Position numbers and translations under genes: made by a program. A model generated the notes under the pieces. That model was not told the DNA's origin. It did no database searches and saw nothing but the letters and a program-made list of their open reading frames with translations. From a virus (lineage: Duplodnaviria > Caudoviricetes), in IMG/VR virus record IMGVR_UViG_3300049892_000014, positions 1-64,000 of that record: 64,000 nt of DNA; one strand, 5' to 3'. This document shows, in pieces, positions 44,257 through 60,983 of this stretch. Position 1 is the stretch's first letter, and every line of letters begins with the position of its first letter.

Positions 44257-45155
44257 TACTCCCTCCCTTCCCAGGATTCTTGGTTGACTGGATACACTTT
44301 AAGACCATTACTTCTCCACATAGCTACTACCGAAGGCCTATCGTCTACGATAAAGTCAATAGAATCCTTTCCGTATCTAGCTATAATTTTATCAAGGATC
44401 TCTTGCTTTACAATGGTATCGGCACGATGATCGCCTCCATTGCGCATAAACATGCGAACCGGAGAGACTCCATTACAAATTAGCATATCCTCGGTAAGAA
44501 TAGCCTCGTCAGTTCCTCTCCCGCTAACAATAAATGTTGTTGTAGACCGATTCATCACGTAGAACCAGTCTGCAATAGGTCTGTTAATCTTATCAAGCAT
44601 AGCTTCGTTCTTTAATGCCGATGGATGAATCCTCTTTCCATTCGCATCAACACGTCCCAATCTATGACTAATATTCATCAGGGTGCCATCTACATCCCAT
44701 ATAGTAATCTTAGACCTATTGGGATCAAGGTCTGGTAAAAGATTATATCGCAGCGCCATGTTTTCAATCACAGCCCTACCAACCCTTCCGTTCCCCTGCC
44801 GCATCCTATCTTGATATATACAATCGTTCACAGCTGTCGGCATTTCGATTAACTCAAAGACAGAATCGCACATTTCCGCAATACCACGCCACATATCTTC
44901 ATTCTTCGGGCTAAGATTTGTGTCGTCAATCACTACGTTAAATCCAAGGCCCAAAGACAGTTCTGCTATGGATTTTTCCGCACGAATAACAACATCCTCT
45001 TTCTTTCCAGACCATCGAAAATCTTTCCCGAAGATCATCAACCGAAGATCATCTCTATTGAGTCTAACTGCCGTTTTACCATTTCCCACAATCTCCCTAG
45101 ACTTCGTACTTTTACCGCTAGCTGGGAGACCCTTCATCATTATAAGTTTTGGCAT
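44256..45155 (-). CDS. Polynucleotide 5'-kinase/3'-phosphatase (PseT-like)
   Basis: GLPASGKST P-loop, NRDDLR, DDTN; HAD motifs DVDGTL, SGR, DDR. Confidence 0.9.
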   Translation of the reverse strand: MPKLIMMKGLPASGKSTKSREIVGNGKTAVRLNRDDLRLMIFGKDFRWSGKKEDVVIRAEKSIAELSLGLGFNVVIDDTNLSPKNEDMWRGIAEMCDSVFELIEMPTAVNDCIYQDRMRQGNGRVGRAVIENMALRYNLLPDLDPNRSKITIWDVDGTLMNISHRLGRVDANGKRIHPSALKNEAMLDKINRPIADWFYVMNRSTTTFIVSGRGTDEAILTEDMLICNGVSPVRMFMRNGGDHRADTIVKQEILDKIIARYGKDSIDFIVDDRPSVVAMWRSNGLKVYPVNQESWEGRE

Positions 45156-45438
45156 AGTTCACCTCCATTCTTAACATTAGGCGTAATGCTTCCTTGTCAG
45201 CTTGACTAGATTGTATCCACCACCTACAGGCGTATGACGTGGCATCCATAGATGGGTAATCAGTTCCACATCTTATTCTTTGAACATTATACATGAAAAG
45301 ATTCATATCATCCATACCTTGTATACGAATAAGATATATTCTTTTTTCCTTGATACTTACTTTGTGATAGATGCGGATGCTCTGTAGCTTGTATACTCCG
45401 TCCATATTAATGTATTCCATGTTATATGTATACATCAC
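45118..45438 (-). CDS. Hypothetical protein (weak member of C-terminal-tag family)
   Basis: SSQADKEALRLMLRME near the C-terminus. Confidence 0.5.
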   Translation of the reverse strand: MMYTYNMEYINMDGVYKLQSIRIYHKVSIKEKRIYLIRIQGMDDMNLFMYNVQRIRCGTDYPSMDATSYACRWWIQSSQADKEALRLMLRMEVNYAKTYNDEGSPS

Positions 45439-47411
45439 AACTCCTTAAATGACGAGATAGCTTCTTCTGGAAGTTGCTTCTTATATTTCAGAACAATCTT
45501 CCTTCCTAAAGCAGCGGCCTTTGGAGTAAGCCTGCCCTGTTGGGCTAAGTTTACACCTAACCTGGTATCGAATTTATTAAACCCTATACCGTCCACAGCT
45601 CTAGCTCCATCACAAAGGCCAGCTATCATCTTTAATGCTAGGTGAATATCATCTATCTGCCTAGAGGTTAGCTTTTGAGAATCAAGGGTTAATTGATCTG
45701 GAGAGACTGATTCCGTAGCAACTGGCTCGGCGTAGTTTGCGCTTAATTCCTCTAACTTTAACGCCTGTCCTACGGCCAATCCCTTATCCAATGCCTTATC
45801 GGCTACGTTCTGCTTTGTCACTGTACGTTTTGCCATCATAGAGTCTATGCTACCCTCTAATACATAATGCTGACACAGAACGCTAGACAACTGGCCGTAT
45901 CTGTGTAGTCTATCTTCGCATTGAGTGATCCATGCCGGAACCCAATCTTCTTCAGCGAAGACTGCATGACTACAAACTAGCTGAAGCTTATTTAATCCTA
46001 TACCAGCGGCTTTAATAGATCCAAGAAAAACACGACAGTTTGGATCTTCTACAAACTTCACCACCGCATCATTCTTCTCGTCTACATCTTGCTCTCCCGT
46101 TAGCCTAACGCACATACCAGGAAACTGTTCATAGAGTCCGTTAATCATATCGTGGTGGTGAGCGAAGACTACTATCTTTTTATCTGTCCCCTCAAGCATC
46201 TCACGGAGATGATTGGCTAAGATTGGGAGTTTAAGAATAGCGGTATCATGCCTAACCTTTGCCATTTCCTTAAATGCAATAGCCTGTGAATCTTTAAGCC
46301 TGCTAATAGCATTATGATAATCCTGCTGATTATCGGAAAGCTTAGCTAGTTCAGCCGCCGCTCTTAATTGACTAATATTCTCCATGCAGTTTTCATAGAA
46401 CTGTCTCTCTTTTAAGATACCTGCTAGAGTTTCGTCTTGAGCGGGGATCTCAATAACCTGTCTTATCTTAGGTGGTAGATCTGTTAAAACCTCAGCTTTT
46501 GTTCTCCTAATCATCACAGTAGATCGAAGTTTCTGCTGTAGTTCTTTAAGATTACTATGACCGGTAAAATCCCAGCCAAACCTACCCTTCTTGCCAGCGG
46601 CATATCTTAAGCCAAACTTAAAGAAGTTATCGTAATTAGCAGGATCTAACCAATTTAAGATAGGAAACAATTCTATAGTTCTGTTAAGAATCGGAGTACC
46701 AGTGAGAGCTATCATACGATCAGCCCTTAGTGGATCTAAGATCCAAACATTCCTAGCCTTCTTACCTACTACCTGGGTAGTTCTCTGCGCTTTAGGATTT
46801 TTACAGAAATGACTTTCATCTACGATAACTAGATCCCAATGCCTTTTGCGTACATCTGTAGCAAACTTTTTAAGTATGTCATAGTTGATGATGACAATGT
46901 CATCAGCCGGAAAGCTCTTAGCGCCAATTCCTACGGATAGTTTTCTGGTTAGCCAGTCGTTTAATTCATTTCTCCAGTTAATCTTAAGAGAGTTTGGGCA
47001 TATGATAAGAACTGATTTAATCTCAGGACAGTAGTTAATCACACCAATAGTCTGAGGAGTCTTACCTAATCCCATATCATCGGCTAATAAAGCATGTTTG
47101 TGCTTTAATAGAAAATCTATACCAGCCAACTGAAATGGCCTAAACTCTTTGCCTTCTGGAGTGGGTACGGATATATTACATCCCCTAGACTTACTAGCCT
47201 CTATTGTGGTATCGTATTGCGTAGACAATGCCTCCAACTCAGCCCTGCAACTACTATCAGCATATCCATATAACTTAGCGGCAATGTGTACGTCCTTGGT
47301 ATACCAATGCCTCTTAAGTACATCCCACTTAAATCCAGCCTTCTTAGGCAGATCTTTTTCCTCATATCTAGTGAGAGCTACAAAGGCATCGCCTTCTTTT
47401 TGTAACAGCAT
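45435..47411 (-). CDS. SNF2-family (SMARCAL1/HARP-like) helicase
   Basis: ADDMGLGKT, DESH, LTGTP, RRTK..VL.DLPPK, QCEDRLHR.GQ. Confidence 0.92.
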   Translation of the reverse strand: MLLQKEGDAFVALTRYEEKDLPKKAGFKWDVLKRHWYTKDVHIAAKLYGYADSSCRAELEALSTQYDTTIEASKSRGCNISVPTPEGKEFRPFQLAGIDFLLKHKHALLADDMGLGKTPQTIGVINYCPEIKSVLIICPNSLKINWRNELNDWLTRKLSVGIGAKSFPADDIVIINYDILKKFATDVRKRHWDLVIVDESHFCKNPKAQRTTQVVGKKARNVWILDPLRADRMIALTGTPILNRTIELFPILNWLDPANYDNFFKFGLRYAAGKKGRFGWDFTGHSNLKELQQKLRSTVMIRRTKAEVLTDLPPKIRQVIEIPAQDETLAGILKERQFYENCMENISQLRAAAELAKLSDNQQDYHNAISRLKDSQAIAFKEMAKVRHDTAILKLPILANHLREMLEGTDKKIVVFAHHHDMINGLYEQFPGMCVRLTGEQDVDEKNDAVVKFVEDPNCRVFLGSIKAAGIGLNKLQLVCSHAVFAEEDWVPAWITQCEDRLHRYGQLSSVLCQHYVLEGSIDSMMAKRTVTKQNVADKALDKGLAVGQALKLEELSANYAEPVATESVSPDQLTLDSQKLTSRQIDDIHLALKMIAGLCDGARAVDGIGFNKFDTRLGVNLAQQGRLTPKAAALGRKIVLKYKKQLPEEAISSFKEL

Positions 47412-47421
47412 GAATACTCCT

Positions 47422-47997
47422 TTAGAAGTCTAAATTCTTGTCTAGAAATTCCCTAGCTTCTTTGCCAAGTATCTCCTGCGACAGATAAGAGGTTGTTGAT
47501 GCTATAGACTTATGCCCAAGAAACGAAGAAGCTACCTGGATAGAAGTCGCTGAAGCTAATAGCATCGCCACAGACCTACGAAGTGTATGCGTTGAAGCGG
47601 CAGAACTATCCGTACCTTGTGGCATTAGTTTACTTAGTATGTACTTAAATAATTCATGACAATAGGTTCGTCCAATGGGCTTAGATGGATCTAGACCTGG
47701 AAAGAGATACTTACTTGTACCAACAACCGTAGGTAGGTATTTAATAATCCTCTCCCTAGTTGTATCGTTAATAGACCTCTCTACATACGATCCAGTCTTT
47801 TTCATCTTCCTTCTAATCGACGTGTAGACATTCCCATTCCGATCTACAACGTCCTCTATGAGCAGAGATTTCGCATCGCTAACCCTAAGACCGGTATTGC
47901 CCATAATCCTTAGCAGGACTTCGTCTCTTATAGACCTAGATCCAGCTATATCATACATCTTCTTAATCTGTGCTGCATCTAAAAATATCTTAGACAT
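47422..47997 (-). CDS. Tyrosine recombinase (catalytic domain only)
   Basis: TGLRVSD, K, HTLRRS, LGHKSIASTTSY catalytic residues in 191 aa. Confidence 0.88.
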   Translation of the reverse strand: MSKIFLDAAQIKKMYDIAGSRSIRDEVLLRIMGNTGLRVSDAKSLLIEDVVDRNGNVYTSIRRKMKKTGSYVERSINDTTRERIIKYLPTVVGTSKYLFPGLDPSKPIGRTYCHELFKYILSKLMPQGTDSSAASTHTLRRSVAMLLASATSIQVASSFLGHKSIASTTSYLSQEILGKEAREFLDKNLDF

Positions 47998-48400
47998 ATC
48001 TTGGCCCTCTCAATCTTGCTAATAAAGATAATCTGTCTAATTCATCACTAGAACAATTGTATACATATTTAGTTATTTCTATCCTCTGCTCTACAGTTGG
48101 GTGATACCCTTCGTTAAACAAGACATGTCCAGCTTCCTGCATAATTATACATGGCAGAAATGGAGTTCTAGCCTGATACGGATGGTTAATGCTTTTACCC
48201 CTAGTGACAAACTGGAAAACCATATCACGATCCTTGTCTACTACGGCTCTGTAATATATATAACTCTTCTTTCCATTGTCTGTCAGAGTCATCCTGCGAA
48301 TACAAGAGTTTCCCTTAAATTCTGGATGATTATTTTCTGGGTTGACAATAATATCATTTATGGAATATAGCTCAGCCCTTGCTTTACGTTTTTTAACCAT
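47990..48400 (-). CDS. Hypothetical protein, C-terminal-tag family
   Basis: Ends CSSDELDRLSLLARLRG. Confidence 0.6.
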   Translation of the reverse strand: MVKKRKARAELYSINDIIVNPENNHPEFKGNSCIRRMTLTDNGKKSYIYYRAVVDKDRDMVFQFVTRGKSINHPYQARTPFLPCIIMQEAGHVLFNEGYHPTVEQRIEITKYVYNCSSDELDRLSLLARLRGPRYV

Positions 48401-48401
48401 G

Positions 48402-48677
48402 TTATTTCACTCCAAAAGTTGACAGTAATCCACGACTAATCTTTTTTCTCCTAACTTTTTTCCCATCCATGGATACAGCTACACTTCTTGCTATTGCCAT
48501 TCTGTAGACAGATTCTATAGAGATAACAATCTCATCTTTGCCACGTTGCTTAAATGCAATATATCCATCAGGTAGGATAGTCATAATGCCATAGTCCGAT
48601 TTCCTGGGTTCTATGCGATTATCCATACTTAGATTAACTCTACGCTTAATCTCTTTTCCATCTTTAAGATTGATCAC
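48402..48677 (-). CDS. Basic hypothetical protein
   Basis: ORF in operon. Confidence 0.6.
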   Translation of the reverse strand: MINLKDGKEIKRRVNLSMDNRIEPRKSDYGIMTILPDGYIAFKQRGKDEIVISIESVYRMAIARSVAVSMDGKKVRRKKISRGLLSTFGVK

Positions 48678-49032
48678 GTTTACCCTCCAAGGTATACATC
48701 ATCCATGCTAGTTCCGCTTCTCTACTACACATATTAGCCTCTAAGGCACCTGTATAGCATAGAAAATCAACACACTTATACCATTCAGGATGAGTACGAC
48801 CTTCAGGATACTTAAACACAGTCTTCCAAACATAGAAATAAAAATCCATAGGCCATGTTTTACTAATCACCTTCCATCCTCCATTTTCACCTGGCCTATA
48901 GAAAACAATATCATCAACTTTAGTCTTCCAGTCTTGCGTTCTAATGTACCATCGCTTTTCGCCATTAAGCTCGCAAAGCGTAGGGGGAGTTTCGATAAAT
49001 TTACCACGCAATAGTTTTTTAGCAGCAGCCAT
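48664..49032 (-). CDS. Hypothetical protein, C-terminal-tag family (variant)
   Basis: Ends CSREAELAWMMYTLEG. Confidence 0.6.
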   Translation of the reverse strand: MAAAKKLLRGKFIETPPTLCELNGEKRWYIRTQDWKTKVDDIVFYRPGENGGWKVISKTWPMDFYFYVWKTVFKYPEGRTHPEWYKCVDFLCYTGALEANMCSREAELAWMMYTLEGKRDQS

Positions 49033-49857
49033 TTATACCTCCACTAGGTTAAAGGAACTACGATATAATTTCATATCCTTCACGTCCAAAAACTTACTAA
49101 ATATCTCAGGTTCATACAGCGATATTTTGAAATCAGAGCTACATAAATACTTGTAGAAATTAGCTCCAAAGGCTATGTTTTCAGTGGTTCCAATATCATT
49201 CAAGGCCTCTGTTAAAGCCTGATAATCTACCGGCTTGTACTTCGCTCTCCCTGCGGCTTCATACGGAAGCAGGACAAAATATTTTATTCTTTCTTTGTAT
49301 GTTGTGTAGATAGACTTGAATCGTTCCACACTCTCCGAATCGCTTATGATGATATGCAGATTAGTCTGTACTTTATCATGTAGTAGATCTACCGCATTCA
49401 TCCAGTAATCAGCCAAATGAGGATGGCAACTAATAGCCACTCCACCGCATAGCTTGGCTGTATGATTTACAATCTCTTGCGTCAACCCCATCCCATTAGT
49501 TGTGTAGTTTGGGAGAATGCCATAAAAACTAAACAGTCTCAGTATTTCGTTAAAATCTGGATGCTCGTTAGGATTTCCTCCACCAATAGCTACCTGGAAC
49601 GGTCGTTGGTTGTAGGTTAATCCAAAAAAGTAACTGTCGAGTTTCTCCAGAGCATTCCTATATCCATCGCATTCGTTTCCGCTATCCTGGTAGCAATACA
49701 AGCAATTACCACGACAAGCATTAGTAATCTTCACGTCCATAAACTCAGGATATTTTAGATCAGTAATAGGTAGAGATGGATCTAGCTTTATCCGTAATGT
49801 TTTTCCACCGATAAAGAAAGATTTATAGTTATGCTCTGGAAATACTCGACTTTTCAT
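49033..49857 (-). CDS. Radical SAM protein
   Basis: ITNACRGNCLYCYQ, AIGGGNP..HPDF, NYTTNG. Confidence 0.9.
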   Translation of the reverse strand: MKSRVFPEHNYKSFFIGGKTLRIKLDPSLPITDLKYPEFMDVKITNACRGNCLYCYQDSGNECDGYRNALEKLDSYFFGLTYNQRPFQVAIGGGNPNEHPDFNEILRLFSFYGILPNYTTNGMGLTQEIVNHTAKLCGGVAISCHPHLADYWMNAVDLLHDKVQTNLHIIISDSESVERFKSIYTTYKERIKYFVLLPYEAAGRAKYKPVDYQALTEALNDIGTTENIAFGANFYKYLCSSDFKISLYEPEIFSKFLDVKDMKLYRSSFNLVEV

Positions 49858-50318: not shown

Positions 50319-50339
50319 AGACTTCCTCCTTCTTTATGG

Positions 50340-50450
50340 TTATACTAACTTACTAAGACATATCTGTATCCAGATAGGCCACTGCGGCCAGGTTGTCTTA
50401 GTCACTCTTTCTACTATCCTTATGGTACCGAGAACTATTTTACTAATCAT
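50340..50450 (-). CDS. 36-aa Trp-rich peptide (not in ORF track)
   Basis: MISKIVLGTIRIVERVTKTTWPQWPIWIQICLSKLV; AGGTGA SD. Confidence 0.45.
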   Translation of the reverse strand: MISKIVLGTIRIVERVTKTTWPQWPIWIQICLSKLV

Positions 50451-50464
50451 ATGTCACCTAACTA

Positions 50465-50602
50465 ATTGCTCGCATAGCCAATGTCGGGATTTAAACCCGA
50501 TCCCTTGACCTACACCACATAGCAGGAGTCAAACCGTCTTAGGGTAGAGCTATGTTTCGGATGCTATCACGGCTAGCACGGCGCATTGGCTATGCGAACA
50601 AT
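50465..50602 (-). ncRNA. tRNA-like structured non-coding RNA
   Basis: 19-bp terminal inverted repeat, T-arm-like TCGGG-TTTAAAT-CCCGA stacked on a GCCAATG/CATTGGC stem, internal hairpins, own promoter. Confidence 0.6.
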
Positions 50603-50628
50603 ATAACCTATTGTTCACAGATTGTCAA
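50600..50628 (-). promoter_or_regulatory. Sigma70-type promoter TTGACA-N17-TATATT overlapped by palindrome GAACAATA-N5-TATTGTTC
   Basis: -35 at 50628-50623, -10 at 50605-50600. Confidence 0.75.
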
Positions 50629-50646
50629 GATCTTTCCGATGCTAGA

Positions 50647-50949
50647 TTATTTCATACCTTCAAGGAGACATTCTAACTTTAGCATATCAAAATCATCCGG
50701 TGGAAGTTCCTCAAAATAAGTAGATAGCTTAGTCTGCCCGATGATATTAGGATGTTGGGACAGCCCTAATTTTTTACATATCCTACTCCATACACAGGGA
50801 GATAAAGTAAGAGTAGTTCCACGTAAAACATTACGCTCCATCATCTCTACGTTTTTAACAGGTCTACTTCTTTGCATATAGTCTACGTTGATCCAGAACA
50901 TATACTTGCATCTCCTGGCACGTATCACTCTCTCGTATCTTGTACTCAT
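50647..50949 (-). CDS. Hypothetical protein, C-terminal-tag family
   Basis: Ends LPPDDFDMLKLECLLEG. Confidence 0.65.
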   Translation of the reverse strand: MSTRYERVIRARRCKYMFWINVDYMQRSRPVKNVEMMERNVLRGTTLTLSPCVWSRICKKLGLSQHPNIIGQTKLSTYFEELPPDDFDMLKLECLLEGMK

Positions 50950-50950
50950 G

Positions 50951-51241
50951 TTAATCTCCTTGTAGAATTTCTTGTAGGTGAAACGCTTCCCATTCAGCCT
51001 TAGTGAAATTGACCAATATCTTTAACCATTTCTTTCTTCTTCGGCTATCATATTGAGTGTTGATCTCAAATGTTTGATAAGATATTGGGTATCCTAGTTG
51101 TTTTTTAGCACCCTTAGACCTAACTATCCATTCGGTTTTCCAGTCGGGCCAATCACCATCTTTCGGATAAGACCAGCTAGATTCATCTACCTGCTTTACA
51201 AACTCATAGAAGTTATGGTTTCTACGATTCTTCCTTTTCAA
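50951..51241 (-). CDS. Hypothetical protein, C-terminal-tag family
   Basis: Ends FTKAEWEAFHLQEILQG. Confidence 0.65.
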   Translation of the reverse strand: MKRKNRRNHNFYEFVKQVDESSWSYPKDGDWPDWKTEWIVRSKGAKKQLGYPISYQTFEINTQYDSRRRKKWLKILVNFTKAEWEAFHLQEILQGD

Positions 51242-51686
51242 GGGAATCCTTTCTCATGACGTATGTTGTAAACTGTTTATTAGTAATCAGAATAGGTAGC
51301 GGTAGAGCAATCAAACCCTGCCAAGTTCCAGAGGAAGTATAGCCATTAAGATTAGCTTTGTCATTCCTAACTGTAATATAGGCAGTTCCCTGCTCGTCAA
51401 GACGTTGATTGATAAACTGAAGAATCTCCTCACGCTTCGCCGGTTCAGATAATGTATTTAATACATAGGTACATAAAATCGTCTGATAATTCCACGCTAG
51501 CCATGTTCTATTCTTATGGTATTGGTCATAACCTTCTATATCTAATAGCTTCGCATCTGTACCATAACCACATCCATAGTCAAGAGCTGGTTTAAGAATA
51601 AGTCCCCTATCATTCAACATCCTTGCTGGTACGCTTAGCTTCCTTCTTTTAATCGCTGTCTTGTGTGTATTATCTGGTGACTCCAT
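51222..51686 (-). CDS. Class I SAM-dependent methyltransferase
   Basis: LDYGCGYG motif I; YVLN; YITVR. Confidence 0.85.
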   Translation of the reverse strand: MESPDNTHKTAIKRRKLSVPARMLNDRGLILKPALDYGCGYGTDAKLLDIEGYDQYHKNRTWLAWNYQTILCTYVLNTLSEPAKREEILQFINQRLDEQGTAYITVRNDKANLNGYTSSGTWQGLIALPLPILITNKQFTTYVMRKDSLEKEES

Positions 51687-51906
51687 GATTCCTCCAATCT
51701 AAAATACCAAACATATGGATAGCTTCCCATTGTTCGGGTGTTAATGTAGATAGAAACTCGTGGGTTCCGTCAATATCATTCTCATCACGGATGGCCCAAT
51801 AATGAGCAGATAGTATTGGTTGTCCTATCTTTTTTCCAGAGACAGATAATTGGATGAAGTATTTATCATCCATACTTACATATTCTGCACTAATCTTAGC
51901 TCCCAT
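51670..51906 (-). CDS. Hypothetical protein, C-terminal-tag family
   Basis: Ends LTPEQWEAIHMFGILDW. Confidence 0.65.
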   Translation of the reverse strand: MGAKISAEYVSMDDKYFIQLSVSGKKIGQPILSAHYWAIRDENDIDGTHEFLSTLTPEQWEAIHMFGILDWRNHGVTR

Positions 51907-52162
51907 TACCAGATCCCCTTCCCTCTATAACTTCTGTTAGATAGAATAACTCCCATTCTTCTTTAGTGAATTTCATCAGTCTTTCAGCAAACTTAGTCTC
52001 GCCTTCTGACTTTGTATAATGTCTATACGTAGACCCAGAAATAGACCTACCTATTGGTACTTGTACGTTTATCCAAGCTGAACTAGCATCTCTATATAGG
52101 TCAATGGTATCTAGTTCATTCTGCCTATATCTGAAGATAAGTCTAGTGTGATTTGTTTCCAT
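51896..52162 (-). CDS. Hypothetical protein, C-terminal-tag family
   Basis: Ends FTKEEWELFYLTEVIEG. Confidence 0.65.
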   Translation of the reverse strand: METNHTRLIFRYRQNELDTIDLYRDASSAWINVQVPIGRSISGSTYRHYTKSEGETKFAERLMKFTKEEWELFYLTEVIEGRGSGNGS

Positions 52163-52197
52163 GACGCTCTCCTAACTAATTGTGTTATAATAGCTAT

Positions 52198-52749
52198 ATG
52201 GGAAAAGATAATTGGTTAGTTAAAAAAGAGGGGCCAGAACCTTTACTGGCAAAGAAAACTAAAGCATATCCAGAATGGGAAAGGGCTAATGTATCCTATT
52301 CGCATTGGCTCAGCGGTAGAACTGCTGAAGAAATTGAGAAGTTTACAGGAGTAGCTCTAGTCGAAGTGGAAAAGGATATAGCGCATATAGAAAGTGTCCT
52401 ACCTTCTAAGACTCTCATTGCAAACAACAACACTAGACAGCGCATCTTACTACAGCGTACACAAGCTAAAGCATACGCTGATAAGTTACAAGATGCACTC
52501 ACTACTGATGTAGCAGCATATCTAAAAGCGGGATTAAACCCGACAACCCCTCTAAAAGAATATAGAGAGGCTGTCGGGATGACCGAAAAGCCTGGCGCAT
52601 TAAACATTCAAGTCAATCAGCAAACTAACGTAACTACAGGCGTTAGCAGGACTGAAGATATTATTCGCTCCGTAATGAATAAGATGCACCAGAAGGAAGA
52701 TGAGCCACCTATTATAGACGTTGAGGCAGAAGAAGCTGAAGCTGTTTAA
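52198..52749 (+). CDS. Putative terminase small subunit-like protein
   Basis: N-terminal HTH-like GRTAEEIEKFTGV; NIQVNQQTNV strand; acidic IIDVEAEE tail; TGnTATAAT upstream. Confidence 0.45.
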   Translation: MGKDNWLVKKEGPEPLLAKKTKAYPEWERANVSYSHWLSGRTAEEIEKFTGVALVEVEKDIAHIESVLPSKTLIANNNTRQRILLQRTQAKAYADKLQDALTTDVAAYLKAGLNPTTPLKEYREAVGMTEKPGALNIQVNQQTNVTTGVSRTEDIIRSVMNKMHQKEDEPPIIDVEAEEAEAV

Positions 52750-53960
52750 TCTTCTTCTACTTGAATACAACGCTTAACCCAATCAGGCGGCTGACAGTTA
52801 TAGCTGCCTACTTTAACTACAATGACTGGAAACTTGGGAATAAATTTACCCCAATCAGCATCGCAATCTGATACAATGACAAGAAAATCAGGTCTAGGCT
52901 TTAGTTGAGCCGCAGCCTCTATCCCTGGCCCCATATTTGTACCACCGCCACCAACTAAGGAAATCTGCTTCCTAGACTTAACCTTCTGAACATGACCAAC
53001 GCTAGAATCATTACTGATTACAGTAACGTCTACCGCCAGTCCCTTCAGGATGCCGTCAACCTCACCAATAGCATGGGCCAAGTCTTTATTAGACATACTT
53101 CCACTGGTATCAATCTGTACGGCAACATTAGGCTTAGGCGCACGGAGACTTGGCATGATAATCTTGCCATATATAGACTGTCTTCTGGCTGGTCTGCTAT
53201 AAGTATAGTTGACCATACCTTGAGTTTCCCCGATCATGCCACGAATACATCCATTGAGAATTGTTCTCCATGGAACTGTACTCCTTAGCATGTCGTCAGC
53301 CCATCTCTCAAAGCCTCCAGGTATAGAACCCCTGCCCTTAGACCTTGCGTAATCCTGTATATCCTTTGCCACAGTATTCTTAATTACCTCTACTTCTTTA
53401 CCTGTGACTCCCTGTACGCTACCAGTACCATCACCTTCTGGTACACTTTCATCATCGCCCTCTCCAGTAGCACATCCACCACAAGCTCCACCGCCTACTG
53501 TAGGATTAGGGATTTGCTGTTTAATCTCCTCAGCCTTATCCATTAACAGCTTGAAGTATTCCTCAGCCATTAAACCTTCGTCAAAGCCAAAGGTTTCTTT
53601 GGGATAAATAACTCCTTTGGGTAGCTTAATATCTTTAATATCATCGTTAATCTCACAGTCAGCCGCAAGATTCCAGATCATATGTTCCGCCTGGGATGAT
53701 ACGCAGGATCTTATAGGATGATCTCTAAGTAAGTGCATGACCTCATGTACCATAACAGATGCTATCTCGTTAATACTCCATTGGTCAAATATACCAGAGT
53801 TATAAATCATCCTCCATCTCTTATCCACTCCCATCGTAACTTGTCCCGCAGTCCTACTGAGATCATCCGTCTCAATAGGAATAAGCGCAAACAATCCTGA
53901 TGAAAAGTAGGGAAAGAGATACGCTGCCCTAAGTCTTGCGGCGCATATTCTTTCGTCCAT
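52746..53960 (-). CDS. Metallopeptidase + VWA domain protein (DUF2201-like MoxR partner)
   Basis: HEVMH (HExxH), WNLAADCEIN, MIDAS DTSGSM, GGGGT, SD. Confidence 0.88.
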   Translation of the reverse strand: MDERICAARLRAAYLFPYFSSGLFALIPIETDDLSRTAGQVTMGVDKRWRMIYNSGIFDQWSINEIASVMVHEVMHLLRDHPIRSCVSSQAEHMIWNLAADCEINDDIKDIKLPKGVIYPKETFGFDEGLMAEEYFKLLMDKAEEIKQQIPNPTVGGGACGGCATGEGDDESVPEGDGTGSVQGVTGKEVEVIKNTVAKDIQDYARSKGRGSIPGGFERWADDMLRSTVPWRTILNGCIRGMIGETQGMVNYTYSRPARRQSIYGKIIMPSLRAPKPNVAVQIDTSGSMSNKDLAHAIGEVDGILKGLAVDVTVISNDSSVGHVQKVKSRKQISLVGGGGTNMGPGIEAAAQLKPRPDFLVIVSDCDADWGKFIPKFPVIVVKVGSYNCQPPDWVKRCIQVEED

Positions 53961-54231: not shown

Positions 54232-54404
54232 AAATCCTCAATGTTAATTCCGTAATGCTGGAGTACAACAGCTTCCAGCTTCTCGACTTCGGTAACCCAT
54301 TCAGCAGGTGGCTCAACTCCACTTTCATCTATAGCATCCAGTAGATCATTAGCGGCCTCCAATATATCCTTGGTTGAGTCAAGTATTTCATCAGTCTTAG
54401 ACAT
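54228..54404 (-). CDS. 58-aa acidic protein (not in ORF track)
   Basis: MSKTDEILDSTKDILEAANDLLDAIDESGVEPPAEW...; overlaps its neighbours at both ends. Confidence 0.6.
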   Translation of the reverse strand: MSKTDEILDSTKDILEAANDLLDAIDESGVEPPAEWVTEVEKLEAVVLQHYGINIEDL

Positions 54405-54693
54405 ATTTACCCCCCAACTTAATCATTAGTAAAATTTTCTCTAACTCATCTTCTGACTTGTTCATCAAAAACTTAATAGTATTCGACTGAGCGTGGTGTT
54501 CTCCTCCGTGTAATAGCACAACAAGCTTACTTAATACAACATCATTCCACTCTCTGGGCATCCACTTCTTAATAGGATTACCATAATCGCCAGGGAATGT
54601 TTTGTATAGGATAAATATGCCATTCACGTCGTAAAACCAACCCCACCCGTTAGTCGTATCAATCCATGTTCGACCTATTACACCCACTTCCAT
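54397..54693 (-). CDS. Hypothetical protein, C-terminal-tag family
   Basis: Ends KSEDELEKILLMIKLGG; lies between MoxR and VWA. Confidence 0.65.
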   Translation of the reverse strand: MEVGVIGRTWIDTTNGWGWFYDVNGIFILYKTFPGDYGNPIKKWMPREWNDVVLSKLVVLLHGGEHHAQSNTIKFLMNKSEDELEKILLMIKLGGKYV

Positions 54694-54706
54694 ATATACC
54701 TCCAAT

Positions 54707-54772
54707 TAGTATTCAATTCCAGGCTCACCCTGAGCCAAGACTGAGCTAAGGGTGAGCCAAGATTCAATACTA
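54707..54772 (-). promoter_or_regulatory. Conserved RNA stem, copy 1
   Basis: UAGUAUUGAA-UC-UU-GGCUCACCCU...AGGGUGAGCC-U-GGA-AUUGAAUACUA. Confidence 0.75.
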
Positions 54773-55864
54773 CCAGAGTCCAGCTTGCGTCAATACATCC
54801 TTAAACCGCATAGCTTCTGGCGGCGGGAGCGATGTAGACTTAGGCCGATTCTTAACAAGCAATCTAGCACAAGAAGCCGCTATGTCTGCCACGTTCAATT
54901 CGGCAGCTTTAGCCAACACTCTCCAACCATTCAGCCATCGCTCATTGGTGTTGTTACTGATAACGACAGCTGTTACTGAGGTCAGTAAGGCGTAAGCCCT
55001 ATCTCCACGTTTAGGAAGAACAAGCTTTTCGGGATGAGCCAATACAACTTCAGGATCAGGCAACTCATCACCCTCTTGAAACTTCTTAAACTCTAGAGCT
55101 GGGCCGTCCCCAACACATCCAGCTATAAGTTCAAAGACTACATCGTCAGAGTCTTTGAAACCAAACGCTCTAGCAGCAGCCAATAGCCTTGCAGCCATAT
55201 CCCATGTTCTATTACTTGGCCACGCTTTACCACGACTATCCTCATCCTTAGGAATAGCATTACGCAGATTAGGACGAGTGCGAACAAATGAAACTATCGC
55301 AGTTCGAGCTAATTGGATATTAGCAGGTTTATCCCAATCTTTAGGAAGTTCCTGCTTTTTAGACTGCGGCCATCCAGAGATCATACCCTCAGACCATGAA
55401 TCCAGAGTATCCGCAAAATCAAAGTGAACAAACCTATTAGCCAACGGAGGAGATAGCTCCCATCCATTAGCCGCTTGCTCAGGTGGATTAGCAGCAGCTA
55501 CGATAGTGACATGCTTAGGTAGCTGAAGATCACCAACAGCCTTATCTAAAACCACTCTAAGCAATGCACTCTGTACAGCCGGTGGAGCCGTAGAGATTTC
55601 ATCTAAGAATAAGACTCCAGGAATATCGGTATTCAATCGGTGCGCCCAAGACGGCGGAGCATAATGTACAACTCCATCCGCACCCTGAATAGGTAGGCCG
55701 CTAAAGTCCGAAGGTTCACGGATAGCGGCAATAACTACCTCACAGTTCCAATCCATACTCTTTGCTACGTCAACAAACCAAGAAGACTTACCAACTCCAG
55801 GAGGGCCAGTTAGTAGCACTGGAACGCCCGCCAACATTGCAATAGTCATAGCTTTACCACTCAT
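54770..55864 (-). CDS. MoxR-family AAA+ ATPase
   Basis: GPPGVGKS, REPSDFSGLP, LFLDEISTAPPAVQSALL, AAANPP, PLANRF. Confidence 0.92.
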   Translation of the reverse strand: MSGKAMTIAMLAGVPVLLTGPPGVGKSSWFVDVAKSMDWNCEVVIAAIREPSDFSGLPIQGADGVVHYAPPSWAHRLNTDIPGVLFLDEISTAPPAVQSALLRVVLDKAVGDLQLPKHVTIVAAANPPEQAANGWELSPPLANRFVHFDFADTLDSWSEGMISGWPQSKKQELPKDWDKPANIQLARTAIVSFVRTRPNLRNAIPKDEDSRGKAWPSNRTWDMAARLLAAARAFGFKDSDDVVFELIAGCVGDGPALEFKKFQEGDELPDPEVVLAHPEKLVLPKRGDRAYALLTSVTAVVISNNTNERWLNGWRVLAKAAELNVADIAASCARLLVKNRPKSTSLPPPEAMRFKDVLTQAGLW

Positions 55865-55880
55865 ATGTTTTCTCCTTAAG

Positions 55881-56141
55881 TTATTGTTTTTTCTTCGGGT
55901 TGCAAATAGGACAATCATCTTCCTGGTCTGAGATCCGATCAGGAACTAATGGCCATTGATTTAACTCGCTGACCTGGTTTAAGTCTCCAGTCCATTTTGA
56001 TGATGTGCTATGGATAGTTACAGATGGTATCTTATACTGCTCTACCATAGACTTCACATCATTAAGTTTATGGATATGACGGCTAATAATCTGTCCGTCT
56101 GGCAGTGTGAAATCAACTTCAAAACCTTTCGTCTTACTCAT
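55881..56141 (-). CDS. Hypothetical protein
   Basis: ORF with C-terminal CPIC. Confidence 0.55.
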   Translation of the reverse strand: MSKTKGFEVDFTLPDGQIISRHIHKLNDVKSMVEQYKIPSVTIHSTSSKWTGDLNQVSELNQWPLVPDRISDQEDDCPICNPKKKQ

Positions 56142-56144
56142 CGT

Positions 56145-57107
56145 TTACTCCTTTGGATATTTATTGATATAATCATAAGAATAATTGACTATATCATGTA
56201 TTGATACTGCATAGATAGCTTTTTCTGCTAACGCTACCCGTTCTTGAAGCTCTGCCACATAAGCGTCTACATGTGAACTATTCTCATGCTTACTGGTAAC
56301 TGCCGCTATTTTTGTAGACAAAACTATCTCTCGTAAAGTATTCAGATTACCACCAGCGGCTAGCCAATCAGAGAAGTCTCCCTTTTCTGGAAGGCCTGGC
56401 AATTCTACTACCTTAACTAAATTAGCTAATGCAGCAATGCCATAGAGAATAGTTTTAGCATGTTGTTGTCCAGCCTGGTCATTATCAGGAATAATTACAA
56501 CATTCTTTCCCTTAAACCATTGATTGTAATCTTCCTTCCAACTATTAGCTCCCATCGGATTAGTAGTAGCCGGTAGTCCTAACTTCCACATAGCATCAGC
56601 ATCCTTCTCGCCTTCAACTATGTAGACTACTGGCCTATCTATCCATTCATTGATACGATATGGATATAGTTTAATATCTCCAATCCCAGGTTGCCAATCA
56701 GGATTATGCTCCCAGTCTGCAATGTTTCGATACAAAGCGTAAGACTTCTTATTGTTATCGTCAATAAACTTCTTGACCAATAAGAATGGATTACCCTTCG
56801 GATCTCTATAGACGTGAGAATTAACAAAGTTTCCCTTTGTCCTAGCTCTTTCTTCCATAAGCCCCCTTTCTACAAGCCAAGTAATCACATCACTTACCTT
56901 GTTTTTATTACTGATAAAGAAAGCAAAGTCCCAAGCTCCTCCATGCTTACCGCAAGGCCCACACATCCACACATTCTTATCGGGATGTATGGTTAAGCTG
57001 CCATGTAGATCGTCATGATTGGGACAATGAAAAATAATCTGCTGTCCAACCTTTCGGTCAAACTGCAATCCAACAGTCTTAGCAATGGCTGAACAAGTGA
57101 TATTCAT
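56145..57107 (-). CDS. DNA primase (CHC2 zinc finger + TOPRIM)
   Basis: CPNHDD..SL...CGPC; IVEGEKDA; IPDNDQAG; KGDFSDW. Confidence 0.9.
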   Translation of the reverse strand: MNITCSAIAKTVGLQFDRKVGQQIIFHCPNHDDLHGSLTIHPDKNVWMCGPCGKHGGAWDFAFFISNKNKVSDVITWLVERGLMEERARTKGNFVNSHVYRDPKGNPFLLVKKFIDDNNKKSYALYRNIADWEHNPDWQPGIGDIKLYPYRINEWIDRPVVYIVEGEKDADAMWKLGLPATTNPMGANSWKEDYNQWFKGKNVVIIPDNDQAGQQHAKTILYGIAALANLVKVVELPGLPEKGDFSDWLAAGGNLNTLREIVLSTKIAAVTSKHENSSHVDAYVAELQERVALAEKAIYAVSIHDIVNYSYDYINKYPKE

Positions 57108-57584
57108 GATAGCCTATCCATTAAATATTCTAGGTTCATTTGTTTGTATACAATTCTTTTAATTGTATTTGGAGCTAGTTTATACATGATGCCTAGGGTT
57201 TCCAAGACTTCATTCTCTATATATTGCACATTCTTGCCGTCACAGTCATGCCTCCAATGCGGGCAATCTCTCCAAGATGCTAAGATATTTCTATCTCTAT
57301 TCATTATGGCTATTTTTCTATCTAATCTTTTCATGTTTATCACCTATTAAATCTGATAATTTAATCAAGATGGATAAATCATTTAACTCGTAAATAGATT
57401 TTGCTATTGCAAGCAAATACTCTTTATCGCAATTCAAGCAACAATCGTAACCTAAGTTAATGGTAACGCTATCCGGCCCATGCTTTTCACAATGCGGATA
57501 ATTATAACCTCTTTCAGAAATATTGATAGGCGCACCAGTCATCGCCACACCCCTATTCCTACTATAAGTTATCGTAGCTCTCAT
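57104..57584 (-). CDS. Two small hypothetical genes (57104-57343, 57318-57584)
   Basis: Coupled ORFs. Confidence 0.55.
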
Positions 57585-57595
57585 ACATCCTCCTA

Positions 57596-57643
57596 TAGTA
57601 AACATTCCCAGGCTATACAGAGTATAGCCAAGGATAAAAACTA
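57596..57643 (-). promoter_or_regulatory. Conserved RNA stem, copy 2
   Basis: AUCC-UU-GGCUAUAC-UCU-GUAUAGCC-U-GGGAAU. Confidence 0.8.
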
Positions 57644-58651
57644 AGTAGTGATGATATGTTTTGGATTGTTTTTAGTTACTTCCAATAAAACATCCAAAGC
57701 GGAAGCTTTTACATCATTGCCAGTTCCGAAGATAGCCGACTCCGCCCTAAGCATGTCCTCGGTTAGATTCTTTCTTTTAGCTGTACTACGAACACTCTTT
57801 TCATGGTCTACATAAGCATTAATAGCTCCAAGCAGAGAATAGGCAGAACCCTTAACTTCTGGCACTACGTTGTATTGATTATTGTCAAACAGCTCAATAA
57901 TCCGAAGCATGACATTATCACGCCTTGTACTCTGATCTCCAGGAAATACCTGATCCAAGGCTTCTGCCATACTCTCCTTAGTCATATCACGTTCCGCTAA
58001 GATATTCAACTTCGCTTGAATATCCTGAGAACTTAATACAACTTGATCCATAAGACTCTTAGCAGCCGCTAACTTACGCTCTGCATTAGTCGTATGTTTA
58101 ATCCTTAAAACTTCTCCATTACCATATCGCAATGCAGTCTGTAGAGAAGTTCCACGCTTCACATTGATATGTGTAAGCCTAGCTGTAGTAGCCATAGATC
58201 CATCATGGCTAGAAGCAAATAGGATATGGGCTTTATTCAAATCGTCAGTCCCATTGATAAAGAAGTCACAAGCAGGACAACGTACTAATACCCAAAAGAC
58301 ATTGCCATCTCCCAAAGCTCCAGCGGACTCATAATGAGATCCTCCCGCTTCTCCTATGAGAGTATCGACAAAGTTAAAGGCGTATTCAAACTGTAATGGA
58401 CGATATACGCTGCCAACTGTAGCAAAGAATCTATCGTTATCATCTCTGAATATACCAAAAGCGTTAATCTTTTCACCCGAACCATTCGGATGAACTAACT
58501 GACGCTTAGAGACTGTGAAAGTTAAATGAGCTAGTTGCCTAGCTTGTTCCCAGGTTACTGGCTTATCTGATACTTGAGACAAACCATCGGCCTGGCCTAC
58601 TACAAACGACATATACTCGTTGCTGAGTACATCAAAGGCCATGCTTTTCAT
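57641..58651 (-). CDS. DUF932 (TIGR03299-like) phage/plasmid protein
   Basis: VG..Y.PLQ...AF, ESAGALGDG, SHDGS, IKHT motifs. Confidence 0.85.
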   Translation of the reverse strand: MKSMAFDVLSNEYMSFVVGQADGLSQVSDKPVTWEQARQLAHLTFTVSKRQLVHPNGSGEKINAFGIFRDDNDRFFATVGSVYRPLQFEYAFNFVDTLIGEAGGSHYESAGALGDGNVFWVLVRCPACDFFINGTDDLNKAHILFASSHDGSMATTARLTHINVKRGTSLQTALRYGNGEVLRIKHTTNAERKLAAAKSLMDQVVLSSQDIQAKLNILAERDMTKESMAEALDQVFPGDQSTRRDNVMLRIIELFDNNQYNVVPEVKGSAYSLLGAINAYVDHEKSVRSTAKRKNLTEDMLRAESAIFGTGNDVKASALDVLLEVTKNNPKHIITT

Positions 58652-58965
58652 AAATCCTCCCCATGAAATGCGGCATCAGCTATCGCTTCTACTTCTTCAT
58701 CACTAGCGTAGCCAATGAGAGCTTTATTGATAGGAAAGCCATCATCATCAAAAGCTTTAATAGCTTCCATATCAGTATCTTCGCCATCGTGATCTTTGAG
58801 ACATTCACGTTTATAAGACTCTGTTTCTTCTCTTAGCTGGATCAAAGTCTCATCAATCATGTTTGCCAATATATCCCTGCCTTCCGAAGATGACAAGTCA
58901 ATCTTGTCTATCTCTTCACAGACAGTCCAAGCGGCACCATCATTGTCTTCGATGACTAATATCAT
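58648..58965 (-). CDS. Highly acidic hypothetical protein
   Basis: About 30% Asp/Glu. Confidence 0.65.
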   Translation of the reverse strand: MILVIEDNDGAAWTVCEEIDKIDLSSSEGRDILANMIDETLIQLREETESYKRECLKDHDGEDTDMEAIKAFDDDGFPINKALIGYASDEEVEAIADAAFHGEDL

Positions 58966-58977
58966 ATTCCTCCTTGG

Positions 58978-60079
58978 TTAGTTATTGTAATACTCACTTT
59001 CATACCTATCCATGTACTGCATATTCCCAGGATCTTCAATAATCAATGCTAACCTTGCGCATCCAAGAGAATCTTTCGGTACACTTGTTGGAGTTGAATC
59101 GAAGTCTAGTCCAAAATGCTCAGAAAATCTTCGAGACTCAGCCATCTTAGTTTCGGCAGCATTTAATTTCCATCGCTTAGACCAATTCTCTCTAGCACGA
59201 ACAACTTTAAGTGCTAGAATATCTATATCATCCCTATAATCTTTTAATATAGACTGTAGATGATGATGATATGGCTTCCTATACTTAGATAAGTGAACAC
59301 GAAATACTTTGTATCCACTCAGTAATTCCATATGATCATCAGACCATATGTTATGGTTTCTGATGGCATGAAACGCAGCATAGCTATGCTGTCTAGTAGT
59401 TTGAGACTTACTATCAATACAGTTTAGAAAGACACACTCATCCTTCCCCTCCATTCTAACGAAAGATGCGACAGGATAATGCGCACCAAAACTATAAAGG
59501 GTATCATTTCTATAATATAGTGAGTAATCTGTATTTCTAGCATGGTCTTGCTCTTTTTCAGCCCACAACTCTGCAACTCTACGATTGTTATATACTATCT
59601 TTGGTCGTTTCTTTTTCAGAGTAATAGAAATTTCCATTAGTCTAGCTCCTTAAGAGTCCATAGTATATCACTATCAACCCTACGCAGTCCAATCCAATAG
59701 CCATGCTTCTCATAAGTTACCTTGCGCTCCCAACCAATCTTGGGCAGAACAGGAATATGATAGCCATTAGGATCAGACTGCTGACATAAGATTTTAGCTT
59801 CACTCTCAGTAATATAATACAATCCATTACTGAGAAGTCTTTTTTCTAAATCAAGCTTCATAGCCACTCCTGCATAGGCTTGCAATTCTCTAGCTTCTTA
59901 ACAATTGAAGCCTCATGAGTGTGGCCATCCTGGGTTAGTATTTCAGATATAGTAGGTGATTTCATATCGCAAATTTGCCTAACTATATCCAACATTGTAC
60001 GATAGTGTGCATTGATCTCATTGAGACCTGAGACTTCTCCACACAACGGACAATAATCATCTTGCCACGACATATACAT
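58978..60079 (-). CDS. Three hypothetical early genes (58978-59637, 59637-59885, 59858-60079)
   Basis: Coupled ORFs; 58978-59637 carries a weak C-terminal-tag match VPKDSLGCARLALIIE. Confidence 0.6.
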
Positions 60080-60087
60080 ACTCCTTT

Positions 60088-60217
60088 CACTAATAAATCA
60101 ACCCCAGTCTACGCAGGTCGCTTAAGCTAGAATCTTTCCAGAATGATAGGCAGACACTCAGCCTATCAAACTCGTCCTAGCCCTCTCTACACGTAGACAA
60201 GAGCAAAGCTATTAGCG
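60088..60217 (-). ncRNA. Conserved RNA stem, copy 3 (covariant GUCU/AGAC), enclosing a rod-like structured insert
   Basis: Nested helices CGCUAAUA/UAUUAGUG, GUCUACGU/GCGUAGAC, GCUAGGA/UUCUAGC, UGAUAGGC/GCCUAUCA. Confidence 0.7.
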
Positions 60218-60220
60218 GGA

Positions 60221-60358
60221 TTATTCAGTTGCATACACTAACTGTATGCCACTAACTAAGCACACTATGGATAGCCAAGCTTTAGGGCCAAGAGTATGAG
60301 CTAAGAGACCATACCCTATAGCTATTAAAATATATCCAGCAAATCTTATAGACTTCAT
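60221..60358 (-). CDS. 45-aa membrane peptide (not in ORF track)
   Basis: MKSIRFAGYILIAIGYGLLAHTLGPKAWLSIVCLVSGIQLVYATE; AAGGAGG SD. Confidence 0.6.
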   Translation of the reverse strand: MKSIRFAGYILIAIGYGLLAHTLGPKAWLSIVCLVSGIQLVYATE

Positions 60359-60371
60359 GGAAGCCTCCTTT

Positions 60372-60983
60372 CTAAAACTCAAACTTATCTTTCCCACCTA
60401 TAACATTCATCATCTTATCCATTTCAAAGCGATACATTTCTTCGTCTGATAATCCATAATTGATAGACCATTTAGTAGCTTCGTTGAGATCTGAGACAGT
60501 TTTGAATAAAGTCTCTAGCTCTTGATAAGTCCAATGTTTCCAATATGACGTAGTAGGCTTATCATCTGAAAATAATTTATTAAACCTATCTCTAATTGAC
60601 GCCTGGTATTTTATGGATAGTAACTCCTTATAACAATTCACATCTAAGGCAGCTATACTACCATAATAATTTACCTGAGATATATTATATTTATTACTCA
60701 ACAGTATGCGATAGATGCTGTCAACTCTATTCATAAGGCAATGGCCATCCCGATAAATTCCTAAATCTTTTCCCTTAACCATATAGCCATCATGGTCAAA
60801 CATTACAACTAAATTAGCCGGTCTATCCATATAAGCCATAACAACATTTCCCATAAACAAGAAATCCCGTATAATTGTGACTTCCCGTTTACCTTTGTAC
60901 TTAAAAGATGCGTATTTCTGTCCACGCATCCAGGCCATGGTTACTCCTGCAATATCTGAATAAATAGCTTTTTGCTTAGGCAT
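60372..60983 (-). CDS. Hypothetical protein, C-terminal-tag family
   Basis: Ends LSDEEMYRFEMDKMMNVIGG. Confidence 0.65.
   Translation of the reverse strand: MPKQKAIYSDIAGVTMAWMRGQKYASFKYKGKREVTIIRDFLFMGNVVMAYMDRPANLVVMFDHDGYMVKGKDLGIYRDGHCLMNRVDSIYRILLSNKYNISQVNYYGSIAALDVNCYKELLSIKYQASIRDRFNKLFSDDKPTTSYWKHWTYQELETLFKTVSDLNEATKWSINYGLSDEEMYRFEMDKMMNVIGGKDKFEF

Follow-up and report, generated by a model that had tools for sequence, protein, structure and literature searches.

Introduction

The host-takeover module of phage SPO1 and the hyperplastic regions of T4-like phages hold tandem multigene families whose small products have early or accessory roles. A C-terminal element serves for docking in adaptors of AAA+ ATPases such as SspB, whose XB peptide contacts ClpX, and MecA, the adaptor of ClpC; the known docking peptides of such adaptors are short and lie in flexible tails. 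Here we analyse a group of small-protein genes with features of both, found in the first 64 kb (hereafter the window) of a 104,912-bp uncultured phage contig, IMG/VR record IMGVR_UViG_3300049892_000014 (G000). Genes are named after their lower coordinate on this contig.

An initial annotation of the window had aligned the C-termini of ten small proteins, seven of them well and three less so, around the genes of a MoxR-type AAA+ ATPase and of a von Willebrand factor A (VWA) protein. It proposed that the proteins are unrelated and share a portable helical tag, which would dock them on a common hub. We find that the tag is probably the most conserved piece of one fast-diverging, tandem-duplicated small-protein family, and not a docking tag on unrelated proteins. 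The earlier observation is partly confirmed, and its interpretation is partly supported, in its descriptive half only.

Results

A tandem array of paralogues

All ten C-termini are present in minus-strand open reading frames (ORFs) of the window. Four of the bearers, 51896, 51670, 50951 and 50647, do lie downstream of the VWA gene as had been described, although a gene on the opposite strand (52180-52749) intervenes. Far from being unrelated, these four are paralogues, with homology over about 55-75 residues, not 17. The product of 50951 matches that of 51896 (phmmer E-value 1.4e-6), and the resulting profile draws in 51670 (7e-4), with alignments of 57-60 residues; 50647 is linked through a gene of a related contig, L006:8284-8601 (blastp E-value 3.4e-8 over 52 aa).

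We defined the family by an alignment (A1) and an iterated hidden Markov model (HMM), with reversed and shuffled decoys in the database. At an E-value of 1e-3 or below, the iterated search gathers 45 members, including all four array genes, and zero decoys; an iterative search at a lax threshold of 0.05 drew in a shuffled decoy and its results were discarded. With at least 50 matched columns required, the four genes align to the profile over 63-76 residues at E-values from 1e-14 to 3e-21. Because of these matches and of their mutual homology, we regard the four genes downstream of the VWA gene as one tandem paralogue array. Homology of the N-terminal domains, which the initial annotation had itself named as incompatible with modularity, holds for four of its seven strong members and likely for 54397.

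The family consensus reads ...IG-x-P-I-S...T-Y...F-I-x-x-L-L-x-h-T-x-E-E-W-E-x-F-H-L-x-E-h-L-(E-G), where the final part is the tag. Just N-terminal of it lies a second conserved stretch, a short helix combining aromatic and hydrophobic residues (KWLKIL, IKFLMN, VKWLHT and ITKYVY in individual proteins).

Tandem arrays recur in related phages. Through MoxR homologues at 89%, 72% and 68% identity we reached the contigs L001, L005 and L006, respectively. Six members, arranged as two triplets, are found in L006 and two in L001; L012 has five, L013 eight consecutive ones and L014 five. Across these arrays, the tags grade from TxEEWExFHL to SxDEFERhhh, and the L013 array includes intermediate types. 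A second family of small paralogues, marked by Y-x-[TS]-R-x-x-A-R, is found upstream of the primase gene in related phages (L005:7282-8127 and L006:2247-2411).

The family is scarce. Among 1.84 billion representative proteins, the family profile finds 31 cluster representatives at an E-value of 1e-3 or below, nearly all 76-105 aa long; in a word-indexed search, the profile finds the same phage clade only, and 54397 finds only itself. None of the ten proteins matches Pfam, and among them only 58978 has a PHROG match, in its N-terminal part; PADLOC gave nothing for any of the small proteins and the ESM Atlas gave no usable match. Likewise, tblastn with 50951 against phage records returned nothing at an E-value of 1 or below. 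A 16-kb stretch of the DNA compared with 50,697 phage records has no match and no close relative at the DNA level, and scans of IMG/VR with MoxR and with a second AAA protein of the contig yielded no relatives. We also inspected 22 loci retrieved with a back-translated EEWExFHLxE pattern: none holds a family member or any anchor gene, and we therefore take them for chance matches. A literature search covering DUF2201 together with MoxR, and multigene families of phages, turned up nothing of relevance. We conclude that this is a previously undescribed, rare and very fast-evolving small-protein family, seen solely in uncultured phage contigs, in a clade of phages of roughly 105 kb.

The tag as a conserved helix of a predicted fold

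In an alignment of 29 sequences, mean pairwise column identity reaches 0.38 in the tag, against 0.15 at the N-terminus, 0.23 in the predicted hairpin and 0.13-0.18 in helices 1 and 2. Comparison of this phage with the L001 type shows enzymes that are 66-89% identical and tag-bearing genes that are 29-41% identical, which makes the family the fastest-changing gene set of the region. Even in the phage whose MoxR is 89% identical, alignments of tag-bearing orthologues are often limited to the C-terminal halves. Judging by these alignments, the N-terminal half is hypervariable and the C-terminal helical unit constant. The initial annotation was right about this contrast; it went astray in detaching the tag, which is predicted to be part of the fold.

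We modelled 50951 with AlphaFold2 on an alignment of 12 sequences. Residues 1-34 are disordered in the model and are followed by a hairpin (38-53) and three helices (55-62, 66-77 and 81-93); the predicted local distance difference test score (pLDDT) is 68 overall and 87-93 in the C-terminal half. For 54397, the model (pLDDT 79.8, predicted template modelling score (pTM) 0.73) shows four strands, then helices at 55-66, 70-81 and 85-98. Both models thus place strands before three helices; the tag corresponds to predicted helix 3 and the upstream conserved stretch to helix 2.

A docking peptide of the SspB XB type, or a degron, would be expected as a short, flexible, exposed tail. In both models the tag is instead helical; pLDDT peaks on it and is low only for the 3-4 residues beyond. 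Nor is its position strictly C-terminal: it is internal in two homologues, P0139 (160 aa, tag ending near residue 100) and P0140 (168 aa, ending near residue 124). As modelled, the tag is more in keeping with a structural role in the core than with docking as a free peptide.

Neither Foldseek searches of PDB and BFVD nor a broad search with VIA-align yielded a match above E 0.2 or Z 3.9. The 50951 and 54397 models have many weak structural neighbours in common, as expected for similar folds. The pattern L-[ST]-x-x-E...L-x-h-h-E-G resembles that of helix-turn-helix or ribbon-helix-helix proteins, as in sigma-70 region 4, with no Pfam match at an E-value of 1 or below and no fold match above Z 3.9; the small proteins end at the point where the recognition helix of a helix-turn-helix would begin.

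The conserved piece would accordingly comprise helix 2, an N-capping turn and helix 3 of proteins 75-120 residues long, with a predicted fold in which a short beta sheet precedes a unit of three helices that may be retained as the core. The family would have expanded by tandem duplication and diverged at great speed, above all in its N-terminal half. As this half diverges fastest, older paralogues remain visibly similar over their last ~25-45 residues only and seem unrelated by eye.

A two-helix module, not the last helix, sets the family apart

We built a 15-residue position-specific scoring matrix (PSSM) from the seven tags of the initial annotation and scored it leave-one-out, with three unrelated phages as controls (Stenotrophomonas C121, Vibrio pVa5 and Rhodothermus RM378). 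It matches the C-terminus of 6.6% of the small proteins here, 4.3% once paralogues are left out, and 3.9% in the controls. Similarity between C-terminal 30-mers is only two to four times higher than between shuffled ends and, with family-internal pairs removed, no higher than among the control phages. As both measures are at the level of the controls, helix 3 taken by itself is generic: many small proteins end in an amphipathic helix that has an N-cap (S/T/P) and two or three acidic residues.

The longer module behaves differently. A PSSM of 22 columns covering helix 2, the turn and helix 3 was trained solely on 41 distinct family segments and applied to the last 36 residues of each protein (scores in Table 1). 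Among 153 small proteins of the control phages, the second-best score is -8.3 bits; 6 of 117 proteins here exceed it, as against 1 of the 153 controls (Fisher p 0.028). By the same measure 48664, 45118, 70885 and 58978 are indistinguishable from controls. The claim of a motif beyond chance therefore fails for the 15-residue helix, as common in control phages as here, and finds support in the 22-column module.

Table 1. Features of the locus and of the contig downstream of the window, with 22-column PSSM scores; one control protein is included.
Feature	Position	Strand	22-column PSSM (bits)	Evidence
Small protein with conserved C-terminal helix	45118-45438	-		hhalign P 0.34; PSSM p 0.29
Probable bearer of the same C-terminal module, 136 aa	47990-48400	-	2.7	reciprocal phmmer with 54397, E 0.012-0.017
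Possible distant member, 122 aa	48664-49032	-		orthologue L006:12746-13024, family HMM E 0.006, residues 34-82
Family member, 100 aa, last array gene	50647-50949	-		family HMM 1.3e-14, residues 23-98
Family member, 96 aa, modelled with AlphaFold2	50951-51241	-		family HMM 2.4e-19
Small methyltransferase-like gene, 154 aa, within family array	51222-51686	-		Methyltransf_23 2e-5 (below Pfam cut-off); LDYGCGYG motif
Family member, 78 aa	51670-51906	-		family HMM 1.8e-18, residues 6-71; orthologue L001:13152-13400, 40% identical
Family member, 88 aa, first gene of tandem array downstream of VWA gene	51896-52162	-		family HMM 3.2e-21, residues 10-81
Conserved opposite-strand gene, 189 aa	52180-52749	+		convergent with VWA gene; separates it from the array
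Putative metallopeptidase and VWA-like protein	52746-53960	-		DUF2201_N 4.4e-32; DUF2201 1.7e-21; phrog_1314 8e-53
Probable distant member, 102 aa, between MoxR and VWA genes	54397-54705	-	16.9	hhalign P 5e-4
MoxR-type AAA+ ATPase	54770-55918	-		AAA_5 2.9e-8; AAA_3 2.7e-6; bpMoxR; phrog_1297 1e-59
Non-member, 219 aa	58978-59637	-		N-terminal part matches phrog_7247
Longer protein, 203 aa, similar last helix	60372-60983	-	-6.1 (borderline)	hhalign P 0.017 over 18 columns
Classical AAA ATPase and four small module genes, outside the window	68919-71467 (L007:4919-7467)	+ (small genes)		PF00004, 434 aa
Further bearer, outside the window	70273-70500	+		
Further bearer, outside the window	70487-70804	+	-0.8	
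Further bearer, outside the window	70885-71112	+		
Further bearer, outside the window	71102-71467	+	7.2	
Vibrio phage pVa5 gp0069, best control	L010:35764-36012 (KX889068.2 63909-64157)		13.0	family HMM E 0.003

The terminal glycine of the tag needs separate comment. Eight window genes have it, and in six of these it falls within the Shine-Dalgarno site of the overlapping downstream gene; such gene overlaps are seen in related contigs too. The same glycine recurs across the family, in homologues on other contigs, so that both constraints, Shine-Dalgarno and protein, may act on it. A repeat at the nucleic-acid level, for instance a hairpin in the leader of the next gene, ahead of its ribosome-binding site and translated by accident, would suit the many genes that overlap or abut the next start codon and whose 3' ends hold translation signals. 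Yet among nine tag-coding 45-mers identity is 0.42, 0.55 and 0.31 at codon positions 1, 2 and 3, with a null of 0.28 (p 0.08). Being raised at positions 1 and 2 and not at 3, the similarity lies at the protein level; the Shine-Dalgarno overlap, moreover, is confined to the last few codons, and we give a nucleic-acid repeat practically no credence.

Probable distant bearers of the module

The bearer that had been placed between the MoxR and VWA genes is indeed there: it is 54397, accompanied by two other small ORFs. When its ortholog group is aligned with the family by hhalign, the C-termini fall in register, and the P-value (Table 1) compares with 0.01-0.72 for 12 control ortholog groups from the same phages. 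The gene in the same position in L005 (L005:11233-11511) matches the family HMM at an E-value of 4.5e-6 over 70 columns, including the PIS motif. In the L001-type phage, the best match of 54397 is the first gene behind the second AAA gene, which makes 54397 a likely paralogue of the four small genes at 70 kb (the 70-kb array).

For 47990, hhalign gives P 0.036, again in register, and its orthologue L001:16257-16646 meets the family HMM at an E-value of 0.14. A short blastp hit of this protein to the phage primase (0.003) raised the thought of a primase chimera, which we rejected because the match to a primase HMM (E-value about 1) is not significant. The L006 orthologue of 48664 outscores every decoy and the tag is kept in 48664 orthologues; 48664 itself has no significant match to the family HMM or the 22-column PSSM. 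Judged by these comparisons, 54397, 47990 and the four genes at 70.2-71.5 kb are probably distant family members, and 48664 possibly so; all of them would then be old members of the same family.

Of the other proteins, 45118 aligns with L001:17223-17561 over the C-terminal ~36-53 residues only, and 60372 is 29% identical over its full length to L001:2696-3385. The weaker tag match reported for 58978 did not survive: hhalign is negative and out of register (P 0.53), the PSSM likewise (p 0.71), and the tag is lost in the orthologue. This protein, and perhaps 60372 and 45118, may simply have generic N-capped acidic amphipathic C-terminal helices.

Gene neighbourhood

Between about 42 and 64 kb, the genes are with few exceptions on the minus strand, each overlapping or abutting its neighbour. 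This region also encodes a DUF932 protein, a primase, an SNF2 helicase, a radical-SAM enzyme, an integrase-family protein and a polynucleotide kinase-phosphatase.

The MoxR and VWA genes reported in the initial annotation, the latter with a peptidase motif of the HExxH type, are confirmed by Pfam (AAA_5 for one, DUF2201_N with DUF2201 for the other). The ATPase classifies as MoxR, with the Walker A sequence GPPGVGKS; its true start is probably ~18 codons downstream of that of the longest ORF, as orthologues are 364-366 aa long. HEVMH in the translation of its partner agrees with a DUF2201 VWA-like putative metallopeptidase. Close MoxR homologues, 50-55% identical, are very many in bacteria (Desulfitobacterium, Desulfosporosinus, Acidimicrobiales), which suggests that the MoxR-DUF2201 pair has been exchanged between phages and bacteria.

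The product of the opposite-strand gene 52180-52749 has no match in Pfam, PHROG or PADLOC. In L001, L005 and L006, too, the VWA gene is followed by such a gene on the opposite strand; at 84% identity to its L001 counterpart, the protein is more conserved than most of its neighbours. In five contigs (G000, L001, L006, L012 and L014), the methyltransferase-like gene lies within the family array or adjoins it. Behind the last array gene, 50647, a stretch of 328 nt (50319-50646) contains no ORF.

Elsewhere in the window, two plus-strand genes encode giant proteins: 13524-21131 (2535 aa, LPD38 domain close to the C-terminus) and 21635-25783 (1382 aa, NUDIX domain in the interior). Both are probably part of the virion or of an ejected polyvalent protein.

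Discussion

Homology within the four-gene array, arrays in related phages, the conservation gradient along the protein, the speed of change and the predicted architecture converge on a single family whose tag is its slowest-changing part, the reading that we hold to be likely. The proteins are probably accessory factors for interaction with the host, and may serve takeover or counter-defence, with the variable part setting specificity.

Several points weigh against this reading. Outside the array, 54397, 47990, 48664 and the 70-kb genes are not significant by the family HMM alone (E-values of 0.1-0.3): 54397 scores 0.18-0.33 and 71102 scores 0.11-0.2, and the first decoy appears at 0.17. The hhalign P-values are biased downwards because the candidates had been picked by eye. 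One shuffled decoy reached 1.6e-5 in a single-sequence search, which makes E-values in these small databases soft. The shared architecture was judged from the order of elements in two AlphaFold2 models, and the function is wholly inferred, the best fold match standing at Z 3.9. Lastly, a member stands directly after both remodeller-type AAA+ genes, which a pure model of accessory paralogues does not predict.

This last point favours an adaptor model, in which the C-terminal helical unit would dock on the MoxR-VWA pair and/or on a second ATPase of the contig, and the N-terminal part would select targets. The second ATPase (68.9-70.2 kb) has Afg2, VAT and p97 as its nearest solved relatives, with no assigned domain in residues 1-180. 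Its gene is immediately followed by the 70-kb array, of which 70273-70500 is the first gene, much as 54397 directly follows the MoxR gene. The chance of finding a module bearer directly after both genes is ~0.003 if all genes are counted and ~0.02 for small early genes, calculated post hoc. The order of AAA gene and array is kept in a relative, L037 (AAA protein 64% identical), a family member follows MoxR also in L005 and L006, and the pattern of constant C-terminus and variable N-terminus fits an adaptor. However, all this synteny comes from one clade with conserved gene order and counts as a single observation. In the closest relative no gene stands between MoxR and VWA; the array is cut off from the VWA gene by the opposite-strand gene and adjoins the methyltransferase-like gene instead; and the four bearers at 70 kb lie 15 kb away from the MoxR-VWA region, on the other strand. 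A third AAA+ gene, that of an IstB-like helicase loader (38991-39776), has no member adjoining it. Hundreds of phage records (PHROGs 1297 and 1314) and many bacteria have MoxR-DUF2201 pairs without this family. Of the initial proposal, the placement of bearers next to AAA+ genes is borne out. A tag that is predicted as a high-confidence helix packed in a compact model, and that is internal in P0139 and P0140, also speaks against a docking tag on a MoxR-VWA hub, and we consider the adaptor model unlikely; a putative link to the neighbouring AAA+ ATPases, seen as gene adjacency, is a minority idea. Its boldest form would make the family a set of interchangeable specificity factors for phage remodelling ATPases, with the three-helix unit docking on MoxR-VWA and/or the Cdc48-like AAA and the hypervariable beta part picking host proteins, for example defence components, to be remodelled or cleaved. 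This would amount to a phage counterpart of F-box-type substrate receptors, and we regard it as a long shot.

The same helices could serve self-association: the C-terminal helix-turn-helix would be a dimerization or oligomerization hairpin through which paralogues form homo- or hetero-oligomers. The last two helices of 50951 align with the N-terminal hairpin of ribosomal L12 (root-mean-square deviation (rmsd) 1.2 over 30 residues) and with the C-terminal domains of CFAP410 and CapH, likewise oligomerization units, and a conserved hydrophobic face (W, F/L, L, L) would suit this role. All these Z-scores are 2.1-2.5, however, which is the noise level for helical hairpins, and the models place the helices in a compact monomer (pTM 0.56-0.73), so that we find this explanation rather improbable. 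A more sceptical view would grant common origin to the four-gene array only, and see in the remainder chance generic helices with a glycine imposed by Shine-Dalgarno sites. The 15-residue PSSM rates, C-terminal similarities equal to those of controls, the glycine overlaps and the weak HMM scores of the non-array candidates are what it would predict. Against it, the 22-column PSSM ranks 54397 above all controls, and 71102, 47990 and 70487 above all but one; the hhalign comparison of 54397 is in register; L005:11233 and L006:12746 connect two groups to the family; the L013 array includes intermediate tags; and the predicted architecture is common to both models. We judge it about as unlikely as the adaptor model, and retain a single, fast-diverging family as the likely explanation.

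As originally stated, the finding would have been a new principle, and its premise of unrelated proteins with a portable tag does not hold; on present evidence this is not a new kind of system. Two pitfalls of C-terminal motifs in phages are illustrated: small proteins often end in an N-capped acidic amphipathic helix, which can mislead, and overlapping Shine-Dalgarno sites impose Gly- and Glu-rich endings. The family is nonetheless a reasonable target for expression screens, because such families usually yield new host-takeover or counter-defence factors.

Among structures, both models have the anti-CRISPR AcrF1 (PDB 6b46 chain I), a small beta sheet with helices, at or near the head of their neighbour lists, with Z 3.9 and rmsd 3.2 over 74 residues in one case and Z 3.0 over 67 in the other. 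With Z below 4, within the noise of the aligner, and sequence identity of 10-11%, AcrF1 serves as a lead only. Among sequences, gp0069 of Vibrio phage vB_VspP_pVa5 (82 aa, hypothetical) ends in ...DLTQDDWDCIALNELLEDK, and its last two helices, which read DLTQDDWDCIALNELL, closely copy those of the family. No other control has a high module score, and the gp0069 gene lies 2.5 kb from the MoxR gene of that phage. Unlike the family arrays, it is present in single copy, with a different N-terminal part, and only the last two helices align.

The MoxR-VWA pair of the window matches the PHROG and Pfam models of RavA-ViaA-type pairs strongly, and differs from the hundreds of phage records and many bacteria with such pairs by the presence of this small-protein family. 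With AAA+ adaptors, the family has in common a variable, putative recognition part, a constant C-terminal element and genes adjoining AAA+ ATPases; unlike their docking peptides, the element is a predicted packed helix (pLDDT ~90), internal in two homologues. A further parallel is with the families of SPO1 and T4-like phages: in both cases short and often overlapping ORFs of the early or replication region are tandem-duplicated and change quickly; they lack known domains, and close relatives differ in which of them they carry. What distinguishes the present family from them, beside the lack of a Pfam or PHROG model, is a signature of its own, IGxPIS ... TxEEWExFHLxEhL.

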